DNA from: Oscillospiraceae bacterium | GTDB taxonomy: Bacteria > Bacillota > Clostridia > Oscillospirales > Oscillospiraceae | Assembly (NCBI GenBank): GCA_017455015.1 | Contig: JAFTBW010000073.1 | Coordinates: 1 to 61,717 of the forward strand | DNA length: 61,717 nucleotides | Direction of reading: 5' to 3' | Part shown: in pieces, positions 4,035-57,359 of the stretch | Numbering within the stretch: the first letter of the stretch is position 1 | How the letters are laid out: the number at the start of each line of letters is the position of its first letter | Program-made: the position numbers and the translations under genes | The notes under the pieces: model-generated | The model's input: the letters and a program-made list of their open reading frames with translations, nothing else | The model's database searches: none | What the model was told of the DNA's origin: nothing

Positions 4035-5442
4035 GGAAAAAAAGACAGAGCAGAGTCAGGAGGAGCTTCTCCGCAAGCAGCTCTTTTACGAGCAGAAAAA
4101 CGGCTATGACCGGCTCGACACGGCCGAGCGGCTGGTGCTGGAGGCGTACTGCGAGGACTACAAGCGCTATCTCAGCGCATCCGCGACCGAGCGGGAGGCG
4201 GTGCGCGAGGCGGTGCTTCTGGCCCGGCAGGCGGGCTTTCGGGAGTTTCTCCCCGGCGCGGAAATCGCCCCCGGGGACCGGCTTTACCGCCTGAACCGGG
4301 GCAAGGGCCTGATGCTGGCGGTGGTGGGGCGGCGTCCCCTGAGCCAGGGGGCCACGATCACCGCCGCCCACATCGACTCCCCCAGACTGGATCTGAAGCC
4401 CCTGCCCCTGTTCGAGGACGGGGAGATGGCCTTTTTCAAGACCCACTACTACGGCGGCATCAAGAAATACCAGTGGGTGACCATTCCCATGGAGCTCCAC
4501 GGCACGGTGGCGCTCAAGGACGGCACCAGCGTGGACATCTGCATCGGCAGGGACCCCGACGACCCCCAGTTCACCATCACGGACCTGCTGATCCACCTGG
4601 CCTCGGACCAGATGCAGAAAAAAGCCTCGGAGGCGGTCAAGGGCGAGAGTCTGAATCTGCTGGTGGGCGGCGTCCCCTACGCCGGAGAGGGCAAGGAGCG
4701 GGTGAAGCTGGCGGTGCTGAGCATGCTCTTTGACAGCTACGGCATCACGGAGGAGGACCTGATTTCCGCCGAGCTGGAGGCCGTCCCCGCCCTGGGCGTC
4801 CGGGATGTGGGGCTGGACCGCAGCTTCATCGGCGGCTACGGCCACGACGACCGGGTCTGCGCTTATGCGGAGCTGCGGGCCATCCTGGAGCTGGAGACGC
4901 CGGAGACCACCGCCGTCTGCGTGCTGGCGGACAAGGAGGAGATCGGCTCCGTGGGCGCCACCGGCATGCGCAGCTACGCTTTCGACTGCTTTATGGAGGA
5001 CCTCTGCGAGCCCCAGGGGACCCCCCTGCGCCGCTGCTTTGAAAACAGTCTCTGCGTCTCCGCCGACGTGTGCAACGCCTTTGATCCCCTCTACCCGGAG
5101 GTCAGCGAGAAGCGCAACAACGCCAGGGCCAATTACGGCATCGGCATCTGCAAGTACACCGGCGCCCGGGGCAAATCCGGGGCCAACGACGCGGATGCGG
5201 AGACGCTGGGCAAGCTGCGGGCCATTCTGGACGGCGCCGGGGTGGTCTGGCAGATGGCGGAGCTGGGCAAGGTGGACCAGGGCGGCGGCGGCACCGTTGC
5301 CCAGTTCATGGCGGAGCGGAACATCTCCACCGTGGACGCCGGCGTGCCGGTGCTGAGCATGCACGCCCCCTGGGAGGTGGTGGCCAAGCTGGACTGCTAC
5401 ATGACGGGCAAGGCCATCCGGGCCGTGTACGAGCGCAGTTGA
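4027..5442 (+). CDS. M18-family aminopeptidase
   Basis: 471 aa starting MSEEKKTEQ; overlaps the upstream stop by 8 nt. GHDDRVCAYA and ADKEEIGSVGATG are metal-ligand-type motifs of M18/M42 aminopeptidases. Confidence 0.8.
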   Translation: MSEEKKTEQSQEELLRKQLFYEQKNGYDRLDTAERLVLEAYCEDYKRYLSASATEREAVREAVLLARQAGFREFLPGAEIAPGDRLYRLNRGKGLMLAVVGRRPLSQGATITAAHIDSPRLDLKPLPLFEDGEMAFFKTHYYGGIKKYQWVTIPMELHGTVALKDGTSVDICIGRDPDDPQFTITDLLIHLASDQMQKKASEAVKGESLNLLVGGVPYAGEGKERVKLAVLSMLFDSYGITEEDLISAELEAVPALGVRDVGLDRSFIGGYGHDDRVCAYAELRAILELETPETTAVCVLADKEEIGSVGATGMRSYAFDCFMEDLCEPQGTPLRRCFENSLCVSADVCNAFDPLYPEVSEKRNNARANYGIGICKYTGARGKSGANDADAETLGKLRAILDGAGVVWQMAELGKVDQGGGGTVAQFMAERNISTVDAGVPVLSMHAPWEVVAKLDCYMTGKAIRAVYERS

Positions 5443-5450
5443 CCGGCGGC

Positions 5451-5479
5451 TTGACACCGCGCACAAAACCCGGTATACT
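5451..5479 (+). promoter_or_regulatory. Near-consensus sigma-A promoter of the small gene 5511-5681
   Basis: TTGACA, 17-nt spacer, TATACT, 31 nt upstream of the ATG. Confidence 0.55.
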
Positions 5480-5510
5480 GTTCCAAACCGTTCTAAAGGA
5501 GGTCCATTCC

Positions 5511-5681
5511 ATGAATATGACAGAAAACTCCCGGCTCATGATCGGTCTGCGCGAGAAAGGCTGGAGCGATACGGAGATCGTCAATTTCTGCCTGTGGGTT
5601 GAGACCGGTGATGAAAAGTATCGCCCGAAAGAGGATGCGAAAATCAAAGGAAACGCTGATTCAATCAACGTGTGCGATTGA
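5511..5681 (+). CDS. Small hypothetical protein (56 aa)
   Basis: AAGGAGG RBS 7 nt upstream of the ATG, with its own promoter and a downstream GC hairpin. Sequence MNMTENSRLMIGLREKGWSDTEIVNFCLWVETGDEKYRPKED. The last 11 codons and the stop are encoded by family-1 repeat copy B1. Confidence 0.5.
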   Translation: MNMTENSRLMIGLREKGWSDTEIVNFCLWVETGDEKYRPKEDAKIKGNADSINVCD

Positions 5682-5716
5682 CGAGCAATTTTTGTGTCCG
5701 CCAAGGCGCAAAAAAC
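5646..5716 (+). repeat. Family-1 repeat, copy B1 (left arm only)
   Basis: AAAGGAAACGCTGATTCAATCAACGTGTGCGATTGACGAGCAATTTTTGTGTCCGCCAAGGCGCAAAAAAC matches the left arm. The core loop and right arm are absent and replaced by a GC hairpin. Confidence 0.75.
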
Positions 5717-5752
5717 GCCGCCCGGCTTGATGCCGGGCGGCAAAGCTTTTTC
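5711..5752 (+). terminator. Intrinsic terminator-like hairpin
   Basis: GCCGCCCGGC-ttgat-GCCGGGCGGC is a perfect 10-bp stem, flanked by an A-run upstream and AAAGCTTTTTC downstream. Confidence 0.55.
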
Positions 5753-5784
5753 TCGGGTCATTTTATCTGTGCGCCGTTTTTGCA

Positions 5785-5948
5785 AAGGAAGCGCTGATGA
5801 AATCCGGCGAGAGCAGATGTCGAGCAAATTTTCGCCGGATCAAGGCGCAAAAAGTGCAGGAATACCTTGTGTATTTCAAACTTTTTGCAACGCAGAGCCG
5901 GCGAAAATTTGCCGGCAGATGCCGAAGACGGATGAATCAGCGTTTCCC
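5785..5948 (+). repeat. Family-1 repeat, copy B2 (diverged arms, conserved core)
   Basis: Termini are AAGGAAGCGCTGA ... TCAGCGTTTCCC and the core is GCAGGAATACCTTGTGTATTTCAA. The stem segment AAATTTTCGCCGG / CCGGCGAAAATTT replaces the canonical TTTTGTGTCCGCC / GGCGGGCGCAAAA. Confidence 0.8.
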
Positions 5949-5954
5949 AAAGGC

Positions 5955-7450: not shown

Positions 7451-7575
7451 CCTAACCCGGATAAACCGGAAAAGTGGTCAGTGGTCAGTGGTCAGTGGTT
7501 AGTGATATAGACGGATCACAAACCTCCGGATAAAAAGATTTTGCCATTTTGCGAAATCTTTTGGCCATAAGTGGC
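7451..7575 (-). repeat. Family-3 repeat, copy 3a (contains a 7-nt tandem array)
   Basis: About 95% identical to 40794-40917. Contains GTGGTCA x3 plus GTGGTTA at 7474-7501. Begins directly after the TAG stop of fhs. Confidence 0.85.
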
Positions 7576-15690: not shown

Positions 15691-15864
15691 AGCAATGAAA
15701 TTTGCAATTTCATTGCTCCGTGAAAGGTTGCACTTCGTTCGCGCCGCCGCGGGGGAGCGGCACTCACTCCGTGAGGAGTGTTTTTGGCGAAAACGCGGTT
15801 TCCGCCAAAAATGGATTTGATTTATTCGCGCCTGCGGGCGCGAACTCTGCGAGGCAACGAAAGG
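15691..15864 (+). repeat. Family-2 multi-hairpin repeat, copy 2a
   Basis: Fills the aroE/K-aroQ spacer. Aligns with the reverse complement of 21148-21325 through four hairpin modules and the conserved tail CTCTGCGAGGCAACGA. Confidence 0.8.
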
Positions 15865-15867
15865 TTT

Positions 15868-17142
15868 TTAACCATTTTCGATCATGGATATGATCTCATT
15901 TGCCGTCTCCTCCGGCGTGCCGGCGACCGGGACGCGCAGGCCGTTCCAGTCCTCCGCCGCAGCCAGATAGACGGGATAGCGGGTGCGGTACAGGGCCTCC
16001 AGCTTCTCCCGGTCGTCGGAGAGGGGGCGGTCCGCCGTGGGCAGCAGCTCCGAAAGCGGCCGGTCCAAAAAGATCAGCTTTCCGCCCCTTTGGATGCTCC
16101 GCCGGTTCTCCGTCCGAAGGATGCCCCCGCCGCCGGTGGCGATGACCTGTCCCGGCTCCCGGCAGAGCCGCGCCAGGGTCTCCGTCTCCATGTCCCGGAA
16201 CCGCGTCTCCCCGTACCGGGAGAAGATCTCGGGGATGGGCATTCCGGCAGAGCGGACGATCTCCGCGTCGCAGTCGAAAAAGGGTCTGCCCAGTTTTTTT
16301 GCCAGCAGCCGTCCCAGGGTGGACTTGCCGCTGCCGGGCATCCCCGCCAGCACCAGATTGGTCTTTTCAAAGGCCAGGGCGTCCCGCAGCGGCTCCCACG
16401 CCGGGGGACTGTCCGGCGCGCCGGTGAACCAGGCCGCCGCCAGGGCCGCCTGGCAGACCAGCATCCCCAGGCCGTTGCCGGTGTGGGGGATGCCACGCTC
16501 CCGGGCCTGACAGACCAGCTCCGTGGTCACGGGGTTGTAGATCACGTCCGCCACGGTGTCCAGCCTCGGAAGCCGGTCCAGATCCACGGGGCAGCTCTCC
16601 ACGCGGGGGTACATTCCTGCGGGCGTGGTGTTGATGAGTACCTGTGCGCCGCCATAGCGGGCATAGGCCTCCCCGTAGCCGAGCACGTCCCCCTCCCCCG
16701 ACGGGGTCCGGCTCAGGCGGAAAATCCGCTCCGCCCCCAGCCGCCTTGCCGCCGCCCGGGCTGTGAGGCTGGTGCCGCCGGCGCCGGCGATGAGGACGGT
16801 TTTTCCCGTCAAATCCCCCGCGCCGATGGAGCGGAGCAGGGCCATGAGGCCGCCCAGGTCCGTGTTGTGCCCGTAGAGCGCGCCGCCCCGGTTGACGACG
16901 GTGTTGACCGCGCCGGTCTCCCGGGCTTCCCGACTCATATCCGCCAGATAGGGGATTACCGCCCGTTTATAGGGGATCGTGACGTTGATGCCGTCAAAGT
17001 CCCGCAACCTGAAAAACTCCCCCAGTTTTTCCGGGGACACCTCCATCAGTCGGTAGTCCCCGCCGCCGGGGTAGCCCAGCCGCCGGTGGATCTCCGGGGA
17101 AAAGCTGTGGGGAAGCCGCTCTCCCAGCAGTCCGATCTTCAT
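15868..17142 (-). CDS. Fusion: shikimate dehydrogenase + shikimate kinase
   Basis: 424 aa starting MKIGLLGERL. The ATG overlaps the aroC stop. AroE motif GINVTIPYK in the N-terminal half and AroK P-loop GMPGSGKSTLGRLLA in the C-terminal third. Confidence 0.9.
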   Translation of the reverse strand: MKIGLLGERLPHSFSPEIHRRLGYPGGGDYRLMEVSPEKLGEFFRLRDFDGINVTIPYKRAVIPYLADMSREARETGAVNTVVNRGGALYGHNTDLGGLMALLRSIGAGDLTGKTVLIAGAGGTSLTARAAARRLGAERIFRLSRTPSGEGDVLGYGEAYARYGGAQVLINTTPAGMYPRVESCPVDLDRLPRLDTVADVIYNPVTTELVCQARERGIPHTGNGLGMLVCQAALAAAWFTGAPDSPPAWEPLRDALAFEKTNLVLAGMPGSGKSTLGRLLAKKLGRPFFDCDAEIVRSAGMPIPEIFSRYGETRFRDMETETLARLCREPGQVIATGGGGILRTENRRSIQRGGKLIFLDRPLSELLPTADRPLSDDREKLEALYRTRYPVYLAAAEDWNGLRVPVAGTPEETANEIISMIENG

Positions 17143-21119: not shown

Positions 21120-21147
21120 GAAAAAAATGCGGGTAACTGTTTAGATA

Positions 21148-21325
21148 CCCTCGTTGCCTCGCAGAGTTCCGCCGCGCACGGCGGAATAAAGTCCAATCCA
21201 TTTTCGGCGGAAACCGCGTTTTCGCCGAAAATACTCCTCGCGGAGCGAGTGTGCCCTCCCCCGCAGGGCGCGCTCGCGTAGCGCAACCCTTTTAACTGTT
21301 CAGAACCCACAGGGTTCTGAACAGT
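21148..21325 (-). repeat. Family-2 multi-hairpin repeat, copy 2b
   Basis: The reverse complement aligns with 15691-15864. Hairpin 1 is AACTGTTCAGAACCC-tgt-GGGTTCTGAACAGTT here versus AGCAATGAAAT-ttgca-ATTTCATTGCT in copy 2a. Confidence 0.8.
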
Positions 21326-24689: not shown

Positions 24690-24853
24690 AAGGAAACGCG
24701 GAATAAATCCCCGCGCACGCCTGGCGGCAAATTTTGCGCCCGCCTGCGTTGCAAAAGCCTTGAAATACACAAAGTATTCCTGCGGTTTTTGCGCCTTGGC
24801 GGGCACAAAATTTGCTCGCCAATCGCACACGTTGCTTTCATCAGCGCTTCCCT
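24690..24853 (-). repeat. Family-1 repeat, copy D
   Basis: Full-length copy in reverse orientation, between the divergent spoIID and membrane-protein genes. Confidence 0.85.
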
Positions 24854-24884: not shown

Positions 24885-25682
24885 ATGCAAAAAAACGCGA
24901 TGACAATCACGCTGTCCACCCTTGTGATGGGCATTTTCGGCGCTTTTCTCCGCTGGCTGCAAAACGTGGGCATCTATGAGCAGGACACGGGCCTGGCGAT
25001 CCGCGGGGCGGGTATCAGCGCGGCGGTGCTGATCTTCACGCTTCTGGTCCTGGCTTTGCAGATCGGGATCGCCTGCTTCTGGCTCCGGGAGACCAACCGG
25101 CTCCAAAGCGCGGAGGAGGCGTTCCACACGGACAGGATACTCCCGATCCTCCTGGGCTGGCTGTGCTGCGCCGTCTACGCGGTGGGCGGCATCATGCTGA
25201 TGTTCTCCGCGGGCAGCACCGCCATGCCCGTCATGCAGCGGCTGCTGGGGGCGTTCGCCATCGTGGCGGGGGTGTGCTTCCCGTTCCTGCCCAGCCGGAT
25301 CAAATATGAGGGAGCCAGCCAGCTCGGCAAGCAGATGACAAGCAGTCTGCTCTCCCTGTTCTTCTGCTTCTGGCTGGTATACAGCTACCGCTCCGGCGCG
25401 CAGGTCCCCTCTCTGTGGACCTACGCGCCCGAGATCGTGGCCCTCTCCGCCGGGGCATTGGCTTTCTACTACGTCTGCGGCTGGTGCTTTGGCCGGGTCC
25501 GGCCCAAAATCAGTCTGATTATGCTGCAATTCGCCGCGTTTCTCTGCATCGCCGTCCTGCCGGACGACCGGAACCGGGCCGTCACCCTGCTGTTGATCGC
25601 CGCCGCCGCCATGCTGCTCATGCTGGAGTATCTTTTCGTCAACAATCTGCTGCGGACCGAGCCCGCGCCGGCGGAGGAGTGA
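24885..25682 (+). CDS. Polytopic membrane protein of unknown function
   Basis: 265 aa starting MQKNAMTITL, with several hydrophobic segments. The track ORF's 5' extension lies in repeat D. Confidence 0.6.
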   Translation: MQKNAMTITLSTLVMGIFGAFLRWLQNVGIYEQDTGLAIRGAGISAAVLIFTLLVLALQIGIACFWLRETNRLQSAEEAFHTDRILPILLGWLCCAVYAVGGIMLMFSAGSTAMPVMQRLLGAFAIVAGVCFPFLPSRIKYEGASQLGKQMTSSLLSLFFCFWLVYSYRSGAQVPSLWTYAPEIVALSAGALAFYYVCGWCFGRVRPKISLIMLQFAAFLCIAVLPDDRNRAVTLLLIAAAAMLLMLEYLFVNNLLRTEPAPAEE

Positions 25683-34181: not shown

Positions 34182-37100
34182 TCAGTCCTGGATCAAAATC
34201 TCCAGCGTCTCATACAGGTGCTCCGGCTCCACCGGCTTGCTGAGGTGGGCGTTCATGCCCACCTGCAGGGAGCGCTGCACATCCTCGTCAAAGGCGTTGG
34301 CCGTCATGGCGATAATGGGGACGGTCTTCGCGTCGGCTCGCGGCAGGGCGCGGATGGCGGCGGTCGCCTCAAGGCCGGTCATCACGGGCATGCGCACGTC
34401 CATCAGGATGGCGTCGTAGGTGTTCTCCGGGCTGTTCTGGAACATCTCCACCACAATCTGTCCGTTCTCCGCGTGATCGACCTCCATCTCCCGCATCCCC
34501 AGCAGCTCTTTCATGATCTCCGCGTTGATGAGCATGTCCTCGGCCAGCAGAATGTGCTTTCCGGTCAGGTCCGCCCTGTGGACATCCTCATGGCTGACGC
34601 TCTTCCGGGCGATGGCAAGCTGGAACTCCTCCAGCACCCCGGACGCGAACAGGGGCTTTGACATGAAGCTGTCCACGCCGGCGGCGATGGCGTCCTCCAT
34701 GACATCGTCCCAACTGTAGGCGGTCAGGATGATGATGGTGCTCTCCCCGTTGTACAGCTCCCGAATGGCCCGGGTGACCTCCACGCCGTCCTGCTCCGGC
34801 ATCCTGAGATCCACCAGGATCAGATTGTAGGCCTCCCTGCGGGCGTGGGCCAGGCGGAGCATCTCCATGGCCTCCCGTCCGCTGTAGCAGGAGTCGGAGA
34901 CGATGCCCACCTCCTCCAGCACCAGTCTGGCATGCTCGCAGGCGACGGGGTCGTCGTCAATGATCAGCACACGCATATCCTGGGGACGGAGCCCGCCGCC
35001 CGCCTGGGCCTTTTTGCCGGATTTTTTCAGGGTGACGGTGACGGTAAAGGTGGAGCCCACGCCCTTTTCGCTCTCCACGGCGATGTTGCCGTTCATCATC
35101 TCCACGATGTTTTTGGTGATCGCCATCCCCAAGCCGGTGGAGCCGTACTTGTTCGCCTTGTTGGAGTCCTCCTGGGAGAAAGCCTCAAAAATTTTGGGCA
35201 GGAAAGCCTTGTCCATGCCCACGCCGGTGTCTTTCATGACAAAGCGCAGGGTGGCCTTGTCCTCGTACTGGGACACGGGCTCCACCAGGAACGTCACGGT
35301 GCCGCCCTCCGGCGTGAATTTCACAGCGTTGCCCAGAATGTTGATGATGACCTGCTTAAGCTTCATGGCATCCCCGATGTAAAAATCCTCCACATGGCCG
35401 GTGATGCGGCAGTCGTAAACCAGGCCCTTGTCCTGGCACTGGCCGTTGATCATGGTGTTGATCTGCTCCAGTATCTCCCGGAACGAGAATTCCTCGCTTT
35501 TCAGGGTCATGCGTCCGCTCTCGATGCGGCTCATATCCAGAATGTCGTTGATGAGGGATAGCAGATGCTTGGCGCTGCCGCCGATCTTTTCCAGTTGCTC
35601 CCTGGTCTTTGGGGGAAGGTCGGGGTCGCTGAGGGCGATGCTGTCCAGACCGATGATGGCGTTCATCGGCGTGCGGATCTCGTGGCTCATGCTGCTGAGA
35701 AAGCTCGTCTTGGCGGCGTTGGCCCGTTCCGCCTCGCTCAGGGCGTTGGCAAGCAGCTCGTTGCGCACCCGCTGCTCCATCAGCACCTCGGTCACGTCGG
35801 ACTTCAAAAGGATGTAGAATTGCGTGTCCCGGTTCACCGGATAGAACGTGAACCGCTTGTTGAAAATCTCGCCGCCGATGGCACAGGTGACATCCACGGA
35901 ATAGCTGTCCTCGGTCTCCAGCACTTTTTCCACGGTCTCCAGGAGGAGCGCTGACGCCGTGGCCTCCCGTTCCTCCTCCGGGACCACGGGGAGGACCTGT
36001 TCCTGCACATAGTCCATATAGACGCCGTCCCGCTTCTTCGGGAAAATGCTGCCCCGGGCGATGTTGGCGGCGTCCCCGATGGTCACGCCGTAATAGCCGC
36101 CCACCAGATAGGTGACCATGTCGTACTGCTGGGCGAGGATCTTCCGGTTCATCACGTCGGTGATCATCTCAGAGTTGTACTCCGTCTCAATGCCGAAGGC
36201 GTCCACGTCCCCCGTCACGGGGTTGCGGCTGGCGGAGCCGGAGAACCGGACGAAGCACTGCCGCCCGGAGGCCCGCCGGCAGTAGCACACCAGCGTGGCC
36301 GGCCCCAGCCCCCGGGCGGTGCGCTCCAGGAGCCTTTCCATGTCAAAGGTCTCGATATACTTCTCCCGGTCGCTCTCCACCAAAAGGCTTTCCAACCGGC
36401 TGGCGGCATAGGCCGGGACGGTGTTGCCCACATAGTCCGAGGGATAGAGGTCGTTGCCCCGGATGTCCTCGATGAGACCCGTGGACATGTTGGAGCGGAT
36501 AACGGTGAGGCTCTCGTCCGCGATGGCGTTGAACTGGTCCACCATGCTGTTGTGGATGGTCTGGGTCCGCTCCCGCTCCCGCTGCTCCCGCAGTATCTCC
36601 GTGATGTCGGATTTCAGCAGAATGTAGAACCTGGTCTCCCTGTCCACGGTGTAGTAGGTGAAGCGCTTTGTGAACGTCTCCCCGCCGATCTCGCAGACGA
36701 CGTCCACGGAATAGCTCTCCTCTTCCTCAAGCTTTGCGGCGATGGTCTCCAGGGAGAGGGCGCTGCGTATCAGCTCCCGTTCTGCCTCCGGCACGACGGG
36801 AAAAACCTGCTCGCGGAGGTAGTCCATATAGATCCCGTCCCGCTGCTTCGGGAAAATGCTGCCTTTTTTGATGTTTGCGGCGTCTCCGATGGTGACGCCG
36901 TAGTTGTTGTCCACGATGTAGCACACCATGTCATACTGCTTGGCCAGGACCTTTTCGTTGAGGACCTCGCTGACCTTCTGGGAGTTGTATTCCGTCTCCA
37001 CCCCCAGAACGATCACGTCGCCGGTCTCGGGGTCCCGGCGCATGGCTGCGGAATACTTGATAAAGCACTGCCGGCCGGACTGCCGCCGGGAGAAAAACAC

Positions 37101-37778
37101 CAGCTCGGAGGGACCCTCGCCGAGATAATACTTCTCCTGGAGCTTTTCCAGGTCAAATACCTTTACGTAGGTCTCCCGGTCCGAGGCCACGGGCATATTG
37201 GCCATGCGCACGTTGATGAGGTCCGTGATCGGCGCGCCGGGCTTGTCCACGTCGTAGAGGTCCGTGCCGTGGACCTCCTCCACCACGCCCTTTGTCAGAT
37301 TGGAGCGCAGGGCGGCAAGGCTCTGGCTGGACAGCGCCTCCAGCTCCTTGTTCAGCTCCCGGTACATGGCCATGGTCTGCTGCTGGCTCTGCTTTAGCTC
37401 CGTCACGTCGGTATAGGTGCAGTAGGCGTACTGCACGCCGTCCTGCTTGACAAAGGCGTAGTGGACGGTGACCCAGATCTCGCCGCCCAGGACCGTGCGC
37501 TTGCGGAATGTCAGGCTGTTGGAGCCGTCCCGGGCGACCTGGTTCTGAAACAGATAGGCAACGCGCTCCCGGTCCTCCGGGTGGACGGAGATCATGCCCT
37601 CGCCGCTCTCAAAGAGGATGCACTCCTCCTCCGTTCCCTCCATCATCTCCGCGTACTCGTGGGAACACCAGACCGGGCGGTACGCCCCATCGGCGTCCAC
37701 CTGCATCAGCACGGAGTTGTTGTCCAACGATTCAAAGAGCTTTTCGTAGAATCCTGTCTCAAAGTGCAACATAAGCAT
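34182..37778 (-). CDS. Cytoplasmic hybrid sensor histidine kinase / response regulator (PAS + duplicated sensory module + HisKA-HATPase + 2 REC)
   Basis: 1198 aa; the true start may be the second ATG at 37772, 7 nt from AGGAG. H-box SHEIRTPMNAI, G-boxes DTGVGM/GSTGLGM, REC motifs DLRMPEQDG and MDVRMPVMTG. No TM segment. Confidence 0.9.
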   Translation of the reverse strand: MLMLHFETGFYEKLFESLDNNSVLMQVDADGAYRPVWCSHEYAEMMEGTEEECILFESGEGMISVHPEDRERVAYLFQNQVARDGSNSLTFRKRTVLGGEIWVTVHYAFVKQDGVQYAYCTYTDVTELKQSQQQTMAMYRELNKELEALSSQSLAALRSNLTKGVVEEVHGTDLYDVDKPGAPITDLINVRMANMPVASDRETYVKVFDLEKLQEKYYLGEGPSELVFFSRRQSGRQCFIKYSAAMRRDPETGDVIVLGVETEYNSQKVSEVLNEKVLAKQYDMVCYIVDNNYGVTIGDAANIKKGSIFPKQRDGIYMDYLREQVFPVVPEAERELIRSALSLETIAAKLEEEESYSVDVVCEIGGETFTKRFTYYTVDRETRFYILLKSDITEILREQRERERTQTIHNSMVDQFNAIADESLTVIRSNMSTGLIEDIRGNDLYPSDYVGNTVPAYAASRLESLLVESDREKYIETFDMERLLERTARGLGPATLVCYCRRASGRQCFVRFSGSASRNPVTGDVDAFGIETEYNSEMITDVMNRKILAQQYDMVTYLVGGYYGVTIGDAANIARGSIFPKKRDGVYMDYVQEQVLPVVPEEEREATASALLLETVEKVLETEDSYSVDVTCAIGGEIFNKRFTFYPVNRDTQFYILLKSDVTEVLMEQRVRNELLANALSEAERANAAKTSFLSSMSHEIRTPMNAIIGLDSIALSDPDLPPKTREQLEKIGGSAKHLLSLINDILDMSRIESGRMTLKSEEFSFREILEQINTMINGQCQDKGLVYDCRITGHVEDFYIGDAMKLKQVIINILGNAVKFTPEGGTVTFLVEPVSQYEDKATLRFVMKDTGVGMDKAFLPKIFEAFSQEDSNKANKYGSTGLGMAITKNIVEMMNGNIAVESEKGVGSTFTVTVTLKKSGKKAQAGGGLRPQDMRVLIIDDDPVACEHARLVLEEVGIVSDSCYSGREAMEMLRLAHARREAYNLILVDLRMPEQDGVEVTRAIRELYNGESTIIILTAYSWDDVMEDAIAAGVDSFMSKPLFASGVLEEFQLAIARKSVSHEDVHRADLTGKHILLAEDMLINAEIMKELLGMREMEVDHAENGQIVVEMFQNSPENTYDAILMDVRMPVMTGLEATAAIRALPRADAKTVPIIAMTANAFDEDVQRSLQVGMNAHLSKPVEPEHLYETLEILIQD

Positions 37779-40793: not shown

Positions 40794-40917
40794 CCTAACC
40801 CGGATAAACCGGAAAAGTGGTCAGTGGTTAGTGGTTAGTGGTTAGTGATATAGACGGATCACAAATCTCCGGATAAAAAGATTTTGCCATTTTGCGAAAT
40901 CTTTCGGCCATAAGAGC
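40794..40917 (-). repeat. Family-3 repeat, copy 3b
   Basis: About 95% identical to 7451-7575. The array is GTGGTCA x1 plus GTGGTTA x3. Starts directly after the TAG stop of the minus-strand gene 40918-42897. Confidence 0.85.
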
Positions 40918-51323: not shown

Positions 51324-51390
51324 CCCCTCATCCGCCATCCGCCTCGCGGGGGATCGGCGGATGCCACCTTCCCCCAGAGGGGAAGGCTTT
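51324..51390 (-). repeat. Family-4 repeat, copy 4b
   Basis: The reverse complement reads AAAGCCTTCCCC-tct-GGGGGAAGG, TGGCATCCGCC-(12-nt loop)-GGCGGATGGC, GGATGAGGGG. It abuts family-1 copy E. Confidence 0.7.
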
Positions 51391-51554
51391 AAGGAAACGC
51401 TGATTAAATCAACGCGTGCGATTGGCGCGCAAATTTTGTGTCCGCCAAGGCGCAAAAACCGCAGGAATACTTTGTGTATTTCAAGGTTTTTGCAACGCAG
51501 GCGGGCGCAAAATTTGCCGTCAAGCGTGCGTGGAGATTTATTCAGCGTTTCCTT
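51389..51554 (+). repeat. Family-1 repeat, copy E (canonical)
   Basis: TTAAGGAAACGCTGA ... TCAGCGTTTCCTTAA are 15-nt perfect terminal inverted repeats, and the arms pair along their whole length. The right end supplies ATT TAA of the DUF2284 gene. Confidence 0.9.
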
Positions 51555-52089
51555 AAATGGTGTGATACAGCAGGCAGCAGGTGTAGGCGATCTTTTCGTC
51601 GCCGTAGTTGTAGGGCACGCCGTTGTCCTTGCAAACCTGGCTGACGAACAACCCGCAGGCCTCCATGGAGGGAAACAGCTTTTCCGGGAAGCGGCAGGGG
51701 GCGTCCGGGTAGGTGCAGGTCTTGCATCGGGTGCAGGTCCCGGCGGTCATGAACAGAAAGTCCTCCCCCGCCGCCAGCAGCCGGTCCGCCAGAGCGTCGG
51801 TCTGGCGCTTGTTCTCCTCCGCCGCCTCCAGCATGGCCTCGATGTCGTAGGAGTCCTCCCGGTCCCCGACGGTCTGGAGCAGCAGACCGCGGTCGTAAGC
51901 GGCAGCCTTCTTCTCCCAGTCGGAAATCTCCCCGCAGGCCGGGGGACATGACCAGTTTTTGTCGTAGCTCCGGCAGCGGTCCGCGGCGCACATGCTCCGC
52001 ACCTCCGGCAGGAATTTCAGCGTGGCCGGGTCCAGCGGGGCCACATTCGTAAAGCCGCTCTCCCTGGCGGCCTGGGCAAAGTCCGTCAT
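51553..52089 (-). CDS. DUF2284 metal-binding protein
   Basis: 178 aa starting MTDFAQAARE (GGAGGAGG RBS; ATGA overlap with the upstream gene). Cys-rich signature CRSYDKNWSCPPACG ... CTRCKTC. Confidence 0.8.
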   Translation of the reverse strand: MTDFAQAARESGFTNVAPLDPATLKFLPEVRSMCAADRCRSYDKNWSCPPACGEISDWEKKAAAYDRGLLLQTVGDREDSYDIEAMLEAAEENKRQTDALADRLLAAGEDFLFMTAGTCTRCKTCTYPDAPCRFPEKLFPSMEACGLFVSQVCKDNGVPYNYGDEKIAYTCCLLYHTI

Positions 52090-53582
52090 ACAAATACCTC
52101 CTCCCACTCGTCGAACAGCATCGCTTCGATGTAGTTGTCGTTGAACAGCGGCGAGGAGCTGAGCTCCTCATAGCCGCATTTTGCCGTCAGCTCCGCCAGC
52201 GCACGCCGTCCCTGCTCCGTCAGCGCCAGGGCCGCGCCCTTGCCGGCGCTGTTGCCCACGCTGCGCACACGATCCAGCAGCGCGGGGGGCAGCATCCCGA
52301 TGGCGCAGGCGCTTTGCAGCCGCAAAAAAGCCCCGAAACCGCCTGCCAGCAGCACCTGGGCGATGTCGCCGTACTCCTTTCCGCTGCGCTCCAGCAGGGT
52401 CTCGATGCCCGCCCGCACCGCGGCCTTGGCCAGTTGGAGCTGGCGCACGTCCTTTCCGGAGAGGTAAACCTCGCCGGAGAGGGTGTACTTTTCCGCGTCC
52501 ATCCGGCCCGTCTCGTCGATGATCTCATTGTAGAGCAGCGCCGCCACGGCGTCGATGAGGCCGCTGCCGCAGAGGCTTTTTGCCGCTCCGCCGCCCAGGA
52601 CCGTGCACTTCAAATCCGTCTCCACGGCGCTGATGGCCCCGTCCCGCGCCGGGGAGCCGCAGGCTATCTCCGCGCCCTCAAAGGCCGGTCCGGCGGCGGT
52701 GGCGCAGGAGAGAAAGCCGTCGCGGTTACCCAGGGCCATCTCCCCGTTGGTGCCCACGTCGATGAACAGGGTCAGACCGTCGGAGCTTGATGCGCCGCTG
52801 CTGAGAAGCCCGGCGGTGATGTCGCCCCCCACATAGCCAGCCACGGCGGGACAGAGGTAGAGGCGGCAGTCCGGGGCAAAGCAGTCAAAATAGCCTGAGG
52901 CAGCCTCCTCCCGGCCAAAGAGGCTCAGGGGCGCAAAGGGGGCCACGCCGATGCTCTCCGGGCTGAGGCCGGCAAAGAGATGCTCCATGACCGTGTTCCC
53001 GGCGATGCTGACGTAAGTGATTTTCGCGGTGTCCGGACTCAGCCGCCGCGCGAGCTCCCGAATCTGGCTCCGGATGGCGTCCCGCAGGGCGGCCAGCCCC
53101 TCCGGGGTGCGGGCGTGCTGGATGCGGCTGATCACGTCCCCGCCCCAGCTCCGCTGGGCGTTCATCTCCCCCGCCGCCCCCAGACAGCGGCCTGTGGCCA
53201 GGTCATAGAGATAGGCCGCGACGGTGGTGGTGCCGATGTCCACGGCAAGGCCCAGGCCCGTTCCCTCGCCGGGGATGTCAATGGCGTCGGCCAGCACCCG
53301 GTCCCCGGCGGACAGGGGGACCGTTACTTCCCCGTCTCCGGCCGGGCGGAGGCGGCAGGAAAGAGCCTTTTCCCCGCGGTACTCCCGTGTCTGCCCGCCG
53401 GCGTCGCAAAACAGGCCGGTGCAGACTACGGAGCACTGATTGCAGGTGCCGTTGCCCCCGCAGGGCGCCTGGACGGCGATACCGGCGTCCCGGAGGAATT
53501 CCAGCAGCGTCCTGGCCGGGGAGGCGCGCAGGGTATGGGTCTCCGTCCCCTGCGTGACGGTGATGCGATGGGTTTGTTCCAT
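52086..53582 (-). CDS. RACo/RamA-like corrinoid reductive activase (2Fe-2S ferredoxin + ASKHA ATPase, DUF4445)
   Basis: 498 aa starting MEQTHRITV. N-terminal CGGNGTCNQC and an ASKHA phosphate-binding motif LAVDIGTTTVAAYL. Confidence 0.8.
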   Translation of the reverse strand: MEQTHRITVTQGTETHTLRASPARTLLEFLRDAGIAVQAPCGGNGTCNQCSVVCTGLFCDAGGQTREYRGEKALSCRLRPAGDGEVTVPLSAGDRVLADAIDIPGEGTGLGLAVDIGTTTVAAYLYDLATGRCLGAAGEMNAQRSWGGDVISRIQHARTPEGLAALRDAIRSQIRELARRLSPDTAKITYVSIAGNTVMEHLFAGLSPESIGVAPFAPLSLFGREEAASGYFDCFAPDCRLYLCPAVAGYVGGDITAGLLSSGASSSDGLTLFIDVGTNGEMALGNRDGFLSCATAAGPAFEGAEIACGSPARDGAISAVETDLKCTVLGGGAAKSLCGSGLIDAVAALLYNEIIDETGRMDAEKYTLSGEVYLSGKDVRQLQLAKAAVRAGIETLLERSGKEYGDIAQVLLAGGFGAFLRLQSACAIGMLPPALLDRVRSVGNSAGKGAALALTEQGRRALAELTAKCGYEELSSSPLFNDNYIEAMLFDEWEEVFV

Positions 53583-55117: not shown

Positions 55118-55138
55118 CTTACAACCAACGGTTGTAAG
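55118..55138. promoter_or_regulatory. Perfect palindrome upstream of the URO-D-family gene (candidate operator)
   Basis: CTTACAACC-aac-GGTTGTAAG, 95-115 nt upstream of the ATG at 55023. Confidence 0.3.
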
Positions 55139-55141
55139 GCA

Positions 55142-55293
55142 GTGTCCAGAAATAAATGCCACAATGATTGCGCAGTATTTTTGGCCTGTGCCAAGGCGGA
55201 AAAGCGCAGGAATACTTTGTGTATTTCAAGCTTTGACAACGAAGGCACAGGCCAAAAAGACAAGCAAGAATGTGGCATTTGTTTTTGGACAGC
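55142..55293 (+). repeat. Family-1 repeat, copy F1 (strongly diverged arms, conserved core)
   Basis: The core GCAGGAATACTTTGTGTATTTCAAG is intact. The arms GTGTCCAGAAATAAATGCCACA.../...TGTGGCATTTGTTTTTGGACAGC are unlike the canonical arms but are mutually complementary. Confidence 0.8.
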
Positions 55294-55297
55294 GCCT

Positions 55298-55461
55298 AAG
55301 GAAACGCTGATTAAATCAACGTGTGCGATTGGCGAGCAAATTTTGTGTCCGCCAAGGCACAAAAACCGCAGGAATACTTTGTGTATTTCAAGGTTTTTGC
55401 AACGCAGGCGGGCGCAAAATTTGCCGCCAAACGTGCGCGGGGATTTATTCAGCGTTTCCCT
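55298..55461 (+). repeat. Family-1 repeat, copy F2 (canonical)
   Basis: Full-length copy, 4 nt downstream of F1. Confidence 0.9.
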
Positions 55462-55466
55462 AAGCG

Positions 55467-56354
55467 TCACTCCGCCTCGAAGCGCTCCCGGAGGCCGCTG
55501 ACGATCTCCGCCAGATCCTTGTCCGGGCTGCCGTCCCGGTAGAGCAGCACGGTGGAAAAGCGCAGGGGCGTGCCGGGGTAGGGAAAGCTCTTGATCCTGG
55601 CCTCCTCCATGTTTGTGAAGGCCAGGGGGAACACGGCAAAGCCCGCCGCCTGGCCCAGCAGCACCAGCATGGTCTCAAAGTTGCGGGCCTCGATCACCTT
55701 GCGGCAGGGGATATTCCGGTAGAAGCTGGCCTCGGCGGGTACGGTATAGTGGTCGTCGTCCATGCGCATTTTGATGAAGCACTCGCTTTTCAGGTCCTCG
55801 GCAGTGATACCGGACCGCATCGCCCAGGGGTGCAGCAGCGACACCACCACCCTGGCCTCGTAGGTGCCGAACACCAGCCGCCGGCAGCCCTCCCAGTCAT
55901 CCTCCTCGTGGGAGTTGGTCAGCAGCAGGTCCAGCTTGCCGTCCAGAAAGCGCCGCAGGCCGTCGGAGAGCTCCAGCATCTCCAGGCCGATCTGCCTGTC
56001 CGGAAAAGCGGAGAGCAGATAGGACACCAGCGGCAGCACCAGGTTTTCCCGGGGCAGCGCAGAGAAGATGCCCAGATTGAGCCGGTCTCTGCCGTTTTGG
56101 GCGTATGCCCGGATGTCGCCCACCGCGGCATCGAAATCCCGGACGACGGATTCCAGCTTTGTCCAGGCGTAACGCCCCAGGGGCGTCAGCGCCGCGCCCC
56201 GCCGGGTGCGGGTGAACAGTTCGCCGCCCAGCTCCCGCTCCAGGATGCCCATCTGCTTGGTCAGGGCCTGGGGGGACAGATACAGCTCCTGCGCGGCCAG
56301 GGAGAAGCTCTCCTTCTCCGCCGCCGTAAGAAAATATTTGATCCGCTGCAGCAT
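55467..56354 (-). CDS. LysR-family transcriptional regulator
   Basis: 295 aa. N-terminal wHTH FSLAAQELYLSPQALTKQMGILE followed by a LysR substrate-binding domain. Confidence 0.85.
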   Translation of the reverse strand: MLQRIKYFLTAAEKESFSLAAQELYLSPQALTKQMGILERELGGELFTRTRRGAALTPLGRYAWTKLESVVRDFDAAVGDIRAYAQNGRDRLNLGIFSALPRENLVLPLVSYLLSAFPDRQIGLEMLELSDGLRRFLDGKLDLLLTNSHEEDDWEGCRRLVFGTYEARVVVSLLHPWAMRSGITAEDLKSECFIKMRMDDDHYTVPAEASFYRNIPCRKVIEARNFETMLVLLGQAAGFAVFPLAFTNMEEARIKSFPYPGTPLRFSTVLLYRDGSPDKDLAEIVSGLRERFEAE

Positions 56355-56914: not shown

Positions 56915-57136
56915 ATGCAGATGTTCGGCAAAAGATTGAACACGACGCGAAAAGAAAAGGGCTACAGCGCGCAGCAGATGGCAGATTTGCTCCATATCAG
57001 CATTCGCAACTATCGAAAATATGAAAGTGGCGACGTGAAACCGACGCTGGAGGGATTGGCCGCGATTGCGGATATTCTGGATGTGTCCGCGGATTATCTG
57101 CTGGAAAGGGATGCGTTTCTCTCAAGGAAGCGCTGA
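56915..57136 (+). CDS. XRE-family helix-turn-helix transcriptional regulator
   Basis: 71-73 aa; ATG 56921 has the better spacing to GGAGAGG. HTH YSAQQMADLLHISIRNYRKYESG. The last three codons and the stop lie in family-1 copy G. Confidence 0.8.
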   Translation: MQMFGKRLNTTRKEKGYSAQQMADLLHISIRNYRKYESGDVKPTLEGLAAIADILDVSADYLLERDAFLSRKR

Positions 57137-57286
57137 TAAAAGCAACGTGCGCGGTTGGCGAGCAAATTTTGTGTCCGCCAAGGCGCAAAAACCGCAGGAA
57201 TACTTTGTGTATTTCAAGGTTTTTGTAACGCAGGCGGACGCAAAATTTGCCGCCAAGCGTGCGCGGGGATTTATTCAGCGCTTCCT
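57124..57286 (+). repeat. Family-1 repeat, copy G
   Basis: AAGGAAGCGCTGA ... TCAGCGCTTCCT termini with the canonical core. Confidence 0.9.
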
Positions 57287-57325
57287 CAAAGAAAGGAAAA
57301 GGGTAATGTGGCTTCGCCCGTTTGG

Positions 57326-57359
57326 ATTGTCAACCAAATTTTCAATATCTGTTGACAAT
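57326..57359. promoter_or_regulatory. BirA operator (bioO-like) upstream of bioY
   Basis: ATTGTCAAC-(16-nt spacer)-GTTGACAAT closely resembles the E. coli bioO half-sites TTGTAAACC/GGTTTACAA. Lies 53 nt before the bioY ATG, with birA downstream. Confidence 0.75.

Follow-up and report, generated by a model that had tools for sequence, protein, structure and literature searches.

Family-1, an intergenic hairpin repeat that recurs throughout a 61.7-kb stretch of Oscillospiraceae DNA (the window, by which the whole stretch analyzed is meant), is a family of MITEs, as observed from its target-site duplications, its terminal inverted repeats, its lack of coding capacity and its housekeeping neighbors. 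With a probability of roughly 0.7, these MITEs have been moved in trans by a DDE transposase, probably an IS5-like one, and the rod formed by a single strand of the element is under selection. The family goes beyond an ordinary MITE in that its center and length are more constrained than its ends. In addition, the rod is probably selected on a fixed strand, independently of transcription, and is maintained at orthologous sites. An initial annotation of the window had read the element as a non-autonomous MITE, and the terminal inverted repeats and 3-4-bp target-site duplications described here bear this out. That annotation had missed the duplications themselves, how widely the family is distributed, how little apex and length vary, and the fact that copies at orthologous sites keep the rod.

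Copies of Family-1 in the Window

The presence of a repeated element in the window, as first claimed, is real. The 25-nt core GCAGGAATACTTTGTGTATTTCAAG (with up to two mismatches) matches seven times in the window and not once in 100 shuffled sequences, and the covariance model agrees. A repeat finder, an HMM and the unfiltered covariance model return an identical set without extra copies, comprising seven core-containing copies, either full or truncated by the edge of the window, and one fragment of a left arm. Coordinates are given here as the ends of the element without its duplications, and those ends were set objectively from the covariance-model alignment of copies from many genomes; the coordinates reported initially were correct to within a few bases. 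The element proper, GGAAACGCTGA...TCAGCGTTTCC, begins at GG, finishes at CC and is about 160 nt long. Its termini are inverted repeats as originally described, except that the outermost (T/A)AA and (Y)T bases, which had been counted among them, represent direct target-site duplications of 4 bp.

Copy E, the copy named in the initial annotation (51393-51552, + strand), is a 160-nt element with the ends GGAAACGCTGA...TCAGCGTTTCC, located between the stop codon of a DUF2284 gene (51553-52107, - strand) and the proS promoter. Its left (51389-51392) and right (51553-51556) target-site duplications both read TTAA, and the TTA of the right duplication, read on the opposite strand, is the codon at which the DUF2284 gene stops. 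The apical hairpin of this copy, GGAATAC/TTTGT/GTATTTC, occupies positions 51464-51482 of the + strand. Copy A (1-136, - strand) is cut by the start of the window; its 5' end, GGAAAC, is at position 136, and the TTAA beside it (137-140) includes the stop codon of an epimerase gene (137-1159, - strand). Copy B (5649-5718, + strand) consists of a left arm only, which ends short of the apex and continues, in the region 5700-5750, into a terminator-like hairpin of typical Rho-independent form (GCCGCCCGGC-TTGA-TGCCGGGCGGC, then a T run). An 80-codon ORF (5439-5681) runs into copy B and terminates inside it.

Copy C (5787-5947, + strand) belongs to a diverged subfamily and carries the duplication CAAA/CAAA (5783-5786 and 5948-5951). 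Its terminal repeat agrees over the initial ~13 nt with that of copy G (57126-57285, + strand; duplication TCAA/TCAA at 57122-57125 and 57286-57289), and the arm interiors of the two copies differ and are compensated. Copy G took the place of the last five codons of an HTH_3 gene (56915-57136), the stop codon of which now lies in the terminal repeat. The C-terminus of the encoded protein has been altered from ...LSKKGKG to ...LSQGSA, an allele that every metagenome contig of the species shares, and the bioY promoter is found downstream of copy G at 57352. Copy D (24692-24851, - strand) is flanked by TTAG and TTCG in element orientation. It lies in the 5' UTR of a gene (24885-25682) to which it is antisense, and a conserved promoter, TTGACG-17-TATAAAAT, is located 11 nt upstream of it. 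Copy F1 (55138-55296, + strand), a member of an old diverged subfamily, has the ends GGCAGTGTCC...GGACAGCGCC with TAA on both sides. Copy F2 (55300-55459, + strand; duplication CTAA/CTAA at 55296-55299 and 55460-55463) was inserted at the right edge of the older F1, a few nucleotides from the stop codon of a LysR gene (55467-56354, - strand). The early statement that copies lie always between genes is nearly right, the exceptions being copy G, which truncates the HTH gene, and copy B, which the small ORF enters; the site of copy D is a 5' UTR.

Several further repeats are present in the window. A second, unrelated family is represented by two 121-nt copies (7451-7571 and 40794-40914) that are 97% identical and contain tandem heptamers (GTGGTCA/GTGGTTA) and a small hairpin. 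At locus L066 the intergenic spacer orthologous to a site of this 121-nt repeat holds a Family-1 copy instead. A third family of ~135 nt (15733-15870 and 21140-21282; 86% identical) has several internal hairpins, and its two copies are inverted and lie 5.3 kb apart with a block of genes between them. Direct repeats with a spacing of 810 nt (35764-36263 and 36574-37073; 72-73% identical) occur within the gene for a 1198-aa hybrid histidine kinase (34182-37778) and resemble a domain duplication rather than a mobile element.

Target-Site Duplications and Evidence of Insertion

Perfect 4-nt direct repeats flank 28 of 92 copies and a 3-of-4 match is seen in 18 more, as compared with 0/184 perfect direct repeats in a control shifted by 4 nt. 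Examples include CAAA/CAAA, CTAA/CTAA, TCAA/TCAA and TTAA/TTAA, and a subfamily with GAACCTG/GAGCCTG ends has a 3-bp TAA duplication on both sides. Since duplications such as CTAA, TCAA, CAAA and TTAG are not palindromic, a mere extension of the palindrome is excluded. Flanking direct duplications indicate that the element entered its sites via a staggered cut, and they mark it as a genuine transposed element, a MITE. The motif YTAR accounts for 16 of the 28 perfect duplications (TTAA in nine, TTAG in four, CTAA in three), with TCAA (five) and others deviating; YTAR is the motif measured for IS5 insertions (PMC5009759). Taken together, most duplications conform to YTAR/TYAA.

An empty site was found in a comparison across species. 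The spacer of locus L047 that is orthologous to the site of copy D lacks the element, is of the expected length and retains the promoter. The initial annotation had proposed comparing strains for target-site duplications and for presence/absence polymorphism. Duplications were found, but polymorphism at the level of strains was not seen, as every same-species metagenome contig recovered by exact-protein look-ups (ProRS, LysR and the neighbor of copy D) carries the same copies. Relatives with a ProRS of 86% identity show no synteny around that gene.

Structure, Covariation, and the Invariant Apex

The rod-like fold proposed initially is well founded, with copy E forming one continuous rod. As RNA, the + strand of copy E reaches -103.4 kcal/mol (z = -13) and the - strand reaches -76.5 kcal/mol, and with DNA parameters the corresponding values are -55.2 and -43.5 kcal/mol. 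The minimum-energy fold of this copy includes seven G:U pairs. A covariance model, R1, was built and used to align 100 copies. In this alignment the proportion of cells that are paired is 85.8%, as opposed to 35-48% when partners are slid by one to three columns, and the covariation score is 0.59, as opposed to 0.09-0.16 for slid partners. Covariation, which the initial annotation had thought an alignment of many copies should reveal, is massive, with changes on both sides at 60 of the 66 base pairs. Pairing in the outer helix, which comprises 17 pairs, amounts to 89.5% in the 100 copies, and the terminal G:C pair is almost invariant. Covariation of the arms excludes a conserved ORF.

Length is tightly held, at 157-163 nt in 90 of 93 copies, with a median arm identity of 47%. 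The best conserved part is the apical hairpin GGAAUAC-UUUGU-GUAUUUC, which is nearly invariant and includes a conserved G:U pair, and a 26-nt segment, cGCAGGAATACTTTGTGTATTTCAAG, is likewise nearly invariant. For the apex, this near-invariance is in part an effect of ascertainment, as loci were collected with the exact apex pattern; bystander copies in the fetched loci have one to four apex changes, some of them compensatory, and retain ATACTTTGTGTAT. Conserved islands are also found in the internal loops (ggCGAG, aAgG, and AAA..CCG). Drift affects the arms together with their terminal repeats, and what preserves the rod is a combination of compensatory changes, G:U pairs and oppositions of two purines. 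On the element strand, non-canonical oppositions are overwhelmingly purine-rich, with G.A/A.G in 430 cells and C.U/U.C in 40. At least four classes of terminal repeat, all beginning with G, can be distinguished (GGAAAC..., GGCAAY..., GTAACC..., and GARCCTG...), sometimes several in one genome. Different classes, with duplications of different lengths, have one common apex, which is odd if a transposase reads the terminal repeats alone.

One explanation for this pattern would be structure-guided mobilization, in which an enzyme reads the apical hairpin of a folded single strand, of either DNA or RNA, and measures from there to its cutting site where the rod begins, so that terminal sequences need only pair and not be read. 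Such a mechanism would fit the conservation of apex and length above all else, the drift of the terminal repeats into four or more classes, at times within one genome, and a strand-specific fold that is independent of host transcription; folding would also unite both ends of one strand. We consider it unlikely nonetheless. No such enzyme was found, and to our knowledge none has been described that recognizes an apex and cuts at the base of a rod. The near-invariant terminal G:C pair and the 13 nt shared by copy C and recent copies in the window resemble ordinary recognition of terminal repeats, the duplications and YTAR targets suit an ordinary DDE enzyme, and maintenance of the rod at orthologous sites (described below) would be left unexplained.

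Strand Specificity and Orientation

The excess of G:T over A:C oppositions noted initially in copy E is seen again here, with 4 G:U and 0 A:C in 45 well-paired variable columns. Likewise, the observation that one strand folds better holds for 91 of the 92 copies compared, which come from many genomes and in which the strand defined by the apex is the more stable by a mean of ~22 kcal/mol. Among 43 representatives with arm identity below 70% there are 146 G:T and 57 A:C oppositions, and the latter fall to 30 once two columns with a conserved A.C are removed. The conserved center contributes only ~7 of the 23 kcal/mol in these representatives.

Such an excess bears on the possibility that Family-1 is a neutral palindrome, that is, a junk MITE without function whose arms are kept complementary by template switching during replication. 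Copying from arm to arm would yield both the compensation seen among orthologues and the covariation. A process of this kind gives no reason for a three- to fivefold excess of G:T over A:C on a fixed strand whatever the orientation, nor does it account for the conserved asymmetric internal loops, the invariant and non-palindromic apex, or the fixed length. Neutrality is therefore regarded as improbable. Arm-to-arm correction may be a contributor, and alone it is insufficient for the G:T excess, the asymmetric loops and the fixed length.

Orientation with respect to genes is near random and weakly antisense (36 antisense and 24 sense copies). Of the copies no more than 10 nt away from a stop codon, 21 are antisense and 6 sense, and one third of the sides that face the 3' end of a gene are within this distance of the stop. 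The GC skew of the flanks, a proxy for the direction of replication, is slightly negative on the element strand (56 vs. 35). As a cause of the strand asymmetry an orientation bias of ~60:40, antisense and with negative skew, is too weak. The energy difference between strands is -22.4 kcal/mol in sense copies and -23.7 kcal/mol in antisense copies. This similarity indicates that the asymmetry is not tied to the direction of host transcription and that the better-folding strand is often absent from mRNA. Neither promoters nor terminators were found in the elements, nor promoters beside them, and TGATTAAAT of the terminal repeat lacks the key -10 positions.

Copies occur close to and even within riboswitches. 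At locus L070 (~1560-1860, - strand) a Family-1 copy in sense orientation splits an FMN riboswitch at the P3 loop, with an aptamer score of 51 bits, and at locus L089 (6604-6759) an intact FMN riboswitch (93 bits) begins 6 nt past a copy. Roles in the stabilization, processing or insulation of mRNAs have been proposed for ERIC, Correia and REP elements. The selected form of Family-1 might similarly be RNA, with the rod acting in such ways in transcripts or as a small RNA. The copy in the P3 loop would be harmless there only if it folds by itself. Frequent G:U pairs, one of them invariant in the apex, the conserved G.A/A.G oppositions (430 cells against 40 for C.U/U.C), the proximity of one third of 3'-facing sides to stop codons and the placement of copy D within a 5' UTR point in the same direction, and the retention of copies at orthologous sites suggests that they act locally. 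Set against these observations are the lack of a promoter in or beside the elements and an orientation that is near random or, if anything, antisense (36 vs. 24 overall; 21 vs. 6 beside stops). Antisense copies moreover show the same asymmetry of folding, the better strand often not being in the mRNA. RNA as the selected form is for these reasons a possible but somewhat doubtful reading.

Distribution and Neighboring Genes

Family-1 is not confined to the window, a point that the initial annotation had left to be checked. The exact apex pattern occurs in at least 111 other genome stretches from a collection with one genome per species. Among the matches listed, carriers are nearly all gut bins (>60) of Oscillospiraceae or other Clostridia from human, ruminant, rabbit and mouse sources, and they include Faecousia, Limivicinus, Avoscillospira, and Acutalibacter. 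Typical Family-1 copies were also seen in two Bacteroidales bins, one of Alloprevotella (L080) and one of Barnesiella (L087), which are more likely to contain mis-binned Clostridia contigs than to represent true occurrence. The nearest ProRS outside the species of the window organism is 86% identical, and the amino-acid identity between this organism and those of the loci is 40-65%; this low identity of the hosts shows that the family spans a deep divergence.

Carriage by phages was considered and rejected, as the pattern is found in only 5 of 2.9 million viral contigs. A distant blastn search of a plasmid collection gave no match. The initial annotation had noted that no transposase is encoded in the window, and the flanking genes are indeed of housekeeping type. 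Clustering of 710 predicted proteins from the 111 loci revealed no specific recurrent neighbor gene; the families recurring beside copies are ABC transporters, EF-G and other housekeeping functions only, and no RAYT or transposase gene was seen adjoining copies in these loci. Short-read contigs frequently break within the element or beside it, and the termini of contigs account for many of the pattern matches. Two contigs, L112 and L113, end near or inside copy E.

Persistence at Orthologous Sites

Individual insertions can be followed across species. At the uxaC locus of three species the element is 97.5-98.8% identical, as compared with 90-91% for the flanks. In three more distant species (L050, L056, and L099) a copy occupies an identical junction in the spacer adjacent to rnpA, where the flanks are 70-83% identical and the copies abut one conserved terminator hairpin (GCGGGGCGAA...TTCGCCCCGC). 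The duplications of this trio have decayed, and the rods still fold with -75 to -85 kcal/mol. The copies differ from one another by 14-19 doubly compensated pairs. The rnpA-adjacent copy looks like an old, vertically inherited insertion, and same-site copies in different genera have retained the rod despite the decay of their duplications.

Comparison with Known Repeat Families

Family-1 behaves like ERIC, Correia and REPIN elements yet belongs to none of them. The ERIC (IRU) elements of Enterobacteriaceae and Vibrio resemble it as imperfect palindromes of 120-170 bp that are intergenic, often transcribed and present in both orientations. They also share with it a conserved central part, an occurrence in several genera, the lack of a known transposase and a hairpin argued to be constrained. 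ERIC elements differ in belonging to another host phylum. Family-1 is distinguished from them by demonstrated 4-bp duplications of YTAR type, by a length fixed to within +/-2 nt and by an apex far more conserved than the ends. An nhmmer search with the Family-1 profile gave no match to an ERIC consensus that was not drawn from a database.

The Correia (NEMIS) elements of Neisseria are MITEs of ~155 bp that have terminal inverted repeats, duplicate their target and occur in hundreds of copies. Like Family-1 they insert at or into gene ends, no cognate transposase is known for them, and their center is thought to bind a host protein. Correia elements have a TA duplication and conserved terminal repeats of 26 bp. 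A resemblance between the cores (CAAGGCG..CCGCAG..TAC) was examined and discarded, the score being -0.6 bits against up to 3.1 for shuffled sequences, with a Correia consensus that likewise did not come from a database.

REPINs, which are mobilized by RAYT, raise the possibility that Family-1 is a REP-like element moved as single-stranded DNA by an IS200/IS605-type Y1 transposase. Both are extragenic repeats that form hairpins, have compensated arms and persist vertically over long times, and in both the form is specific to a single strand. REPINs have neither a target duplication nor terminal inverted repeats of DDE type, and Family-1 has both; transposition by Y1 enzymes produces no target duplications. 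The arms of REPINs are conserved and their loop is variable, the opposite of the pattern in Family-1. Family-1 is also without a GTAG-type 5' tetranucleotide, and it shows no strong orientation bias relative to the GC skew of its flanks (56 vs. 35). REPINs depend on linkage to a RAYT gene; in the 111 loci no such gene adjoins any Family-1 copy. A REPIN-like origin is thus very improbable.

Integron attC sites were likewise rejected. The GGAAAC/GTTTCC termini do not fit the R''/R' cores (RYYYAAC/GTTRRRY), and Family-1 copies are scattered among housekeeping genes and have duplications. A search of the whole window against Rfam returned no match at the gathering score and, at E <=10, only generic microRNA-hairpin noise of at most 24 bits against cut-offs of 54-100. 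No description of Family-1 was found in the literature searched. With neither an Rfam nor a plasmid match and no relevant literature, the early remark that this is not a named family stands, and Family-1 is probably a new family of MITEs.

The IS5 family provides the closest parallel among insertion sequences, through 4-bp YTAR duplications of the kind seen in Family-1 (PMC5009759). MITEs derived from IS5 differ from Family-1, in which the palindrome extends over the full length and has a conserved center, features unexpected for a deletion derivative. The Family-1 subfamily with a 3-bp TAA duplication and GAG/GAA ends presumably resembles the IS1031 group.

Mobilization and a Possible Role for the Rod

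In the favored reading, mobilization would have occurred in trans through a DDE transposase; we infer both the enzyme and its family. Judged by how long the duplications are, by their motif and by termini that start with G, the likeliest enzyme is one of the IS5 family. The GG or GA starts fit IS5 according to the ISfinder family table. Neither an IS5-family transposase nor an autonomous, full-length IS with Family-1 ends was found in the ~0.85 Mb made up of the window and the loci, which by rough estimate represents ~0.5% of the carrier genomes, too small a share for the absence to carry much weight. The search was for inverted 18-mers that are separated by 0.6-3.5 kb and bordered by a duplication of 3-4 bp. 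A search of the window and loci for 15-mers of the terminal repeats beyond the copies already known likewise gave no convincing match.

The rod of the element strand would be the selected single-stranded form and its apex a putative recognition site for a protein. A hairpin of the element's own DNA strand, formed during mobilization or maintenance, is slightly preferred over read-through RNA, because the asymmetry is independent of host transcription and the elements have no promoter. A role in RNA, as a self-contained inert or stabilizing module in transcripts, is also conceivable. Known DDE transposases work on duplex DNA, and we know of no mechanism that requires a whole-element hairpin on one strand. 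Given the long retention of a strand-specific shape, tip and length, the hairpin itself probably does something.

Rather more tentatively, the rod may be a functional single-stranded module, read through its invariant apex and fixed 160-nt length, and not a by-product of the terminal repeats. Such a module could serve structure-guided mobilization, with recognition of the apex, a molecular ruler and folding that joins the ends of one strand. Alternatively, the host might have retained the copies, hundreds in number, because they serve it as structured cis elements or as sites for protein binding. A functional module would explain why center and length are conserved over the ends, why several end classes have one apex and why the rod is kept across genera.

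Significance for Oscillospiraceae

Few gut bacteria are as abundant as the Oscillospiraceae, and few have been cultured as little. A repeat that occurs about once per 8 kb breaks metagenome assemblies of these organisms. It also affects gene structure, copies being located at gene ends, in 5' UTRs and even within a riboswitch. The model R1 can be used to mask or annotate the family. The persistence of ERIC, REP and Correia elements and the role of their hairpins have been debated for decades. Family-1 offers an unusually clean data set for the question of what hairpin repeats do, combining deep covariation, a strand asymmetry independent of transcription, an invariant apex, a fixed length, and orthologues that can be traced across genera.
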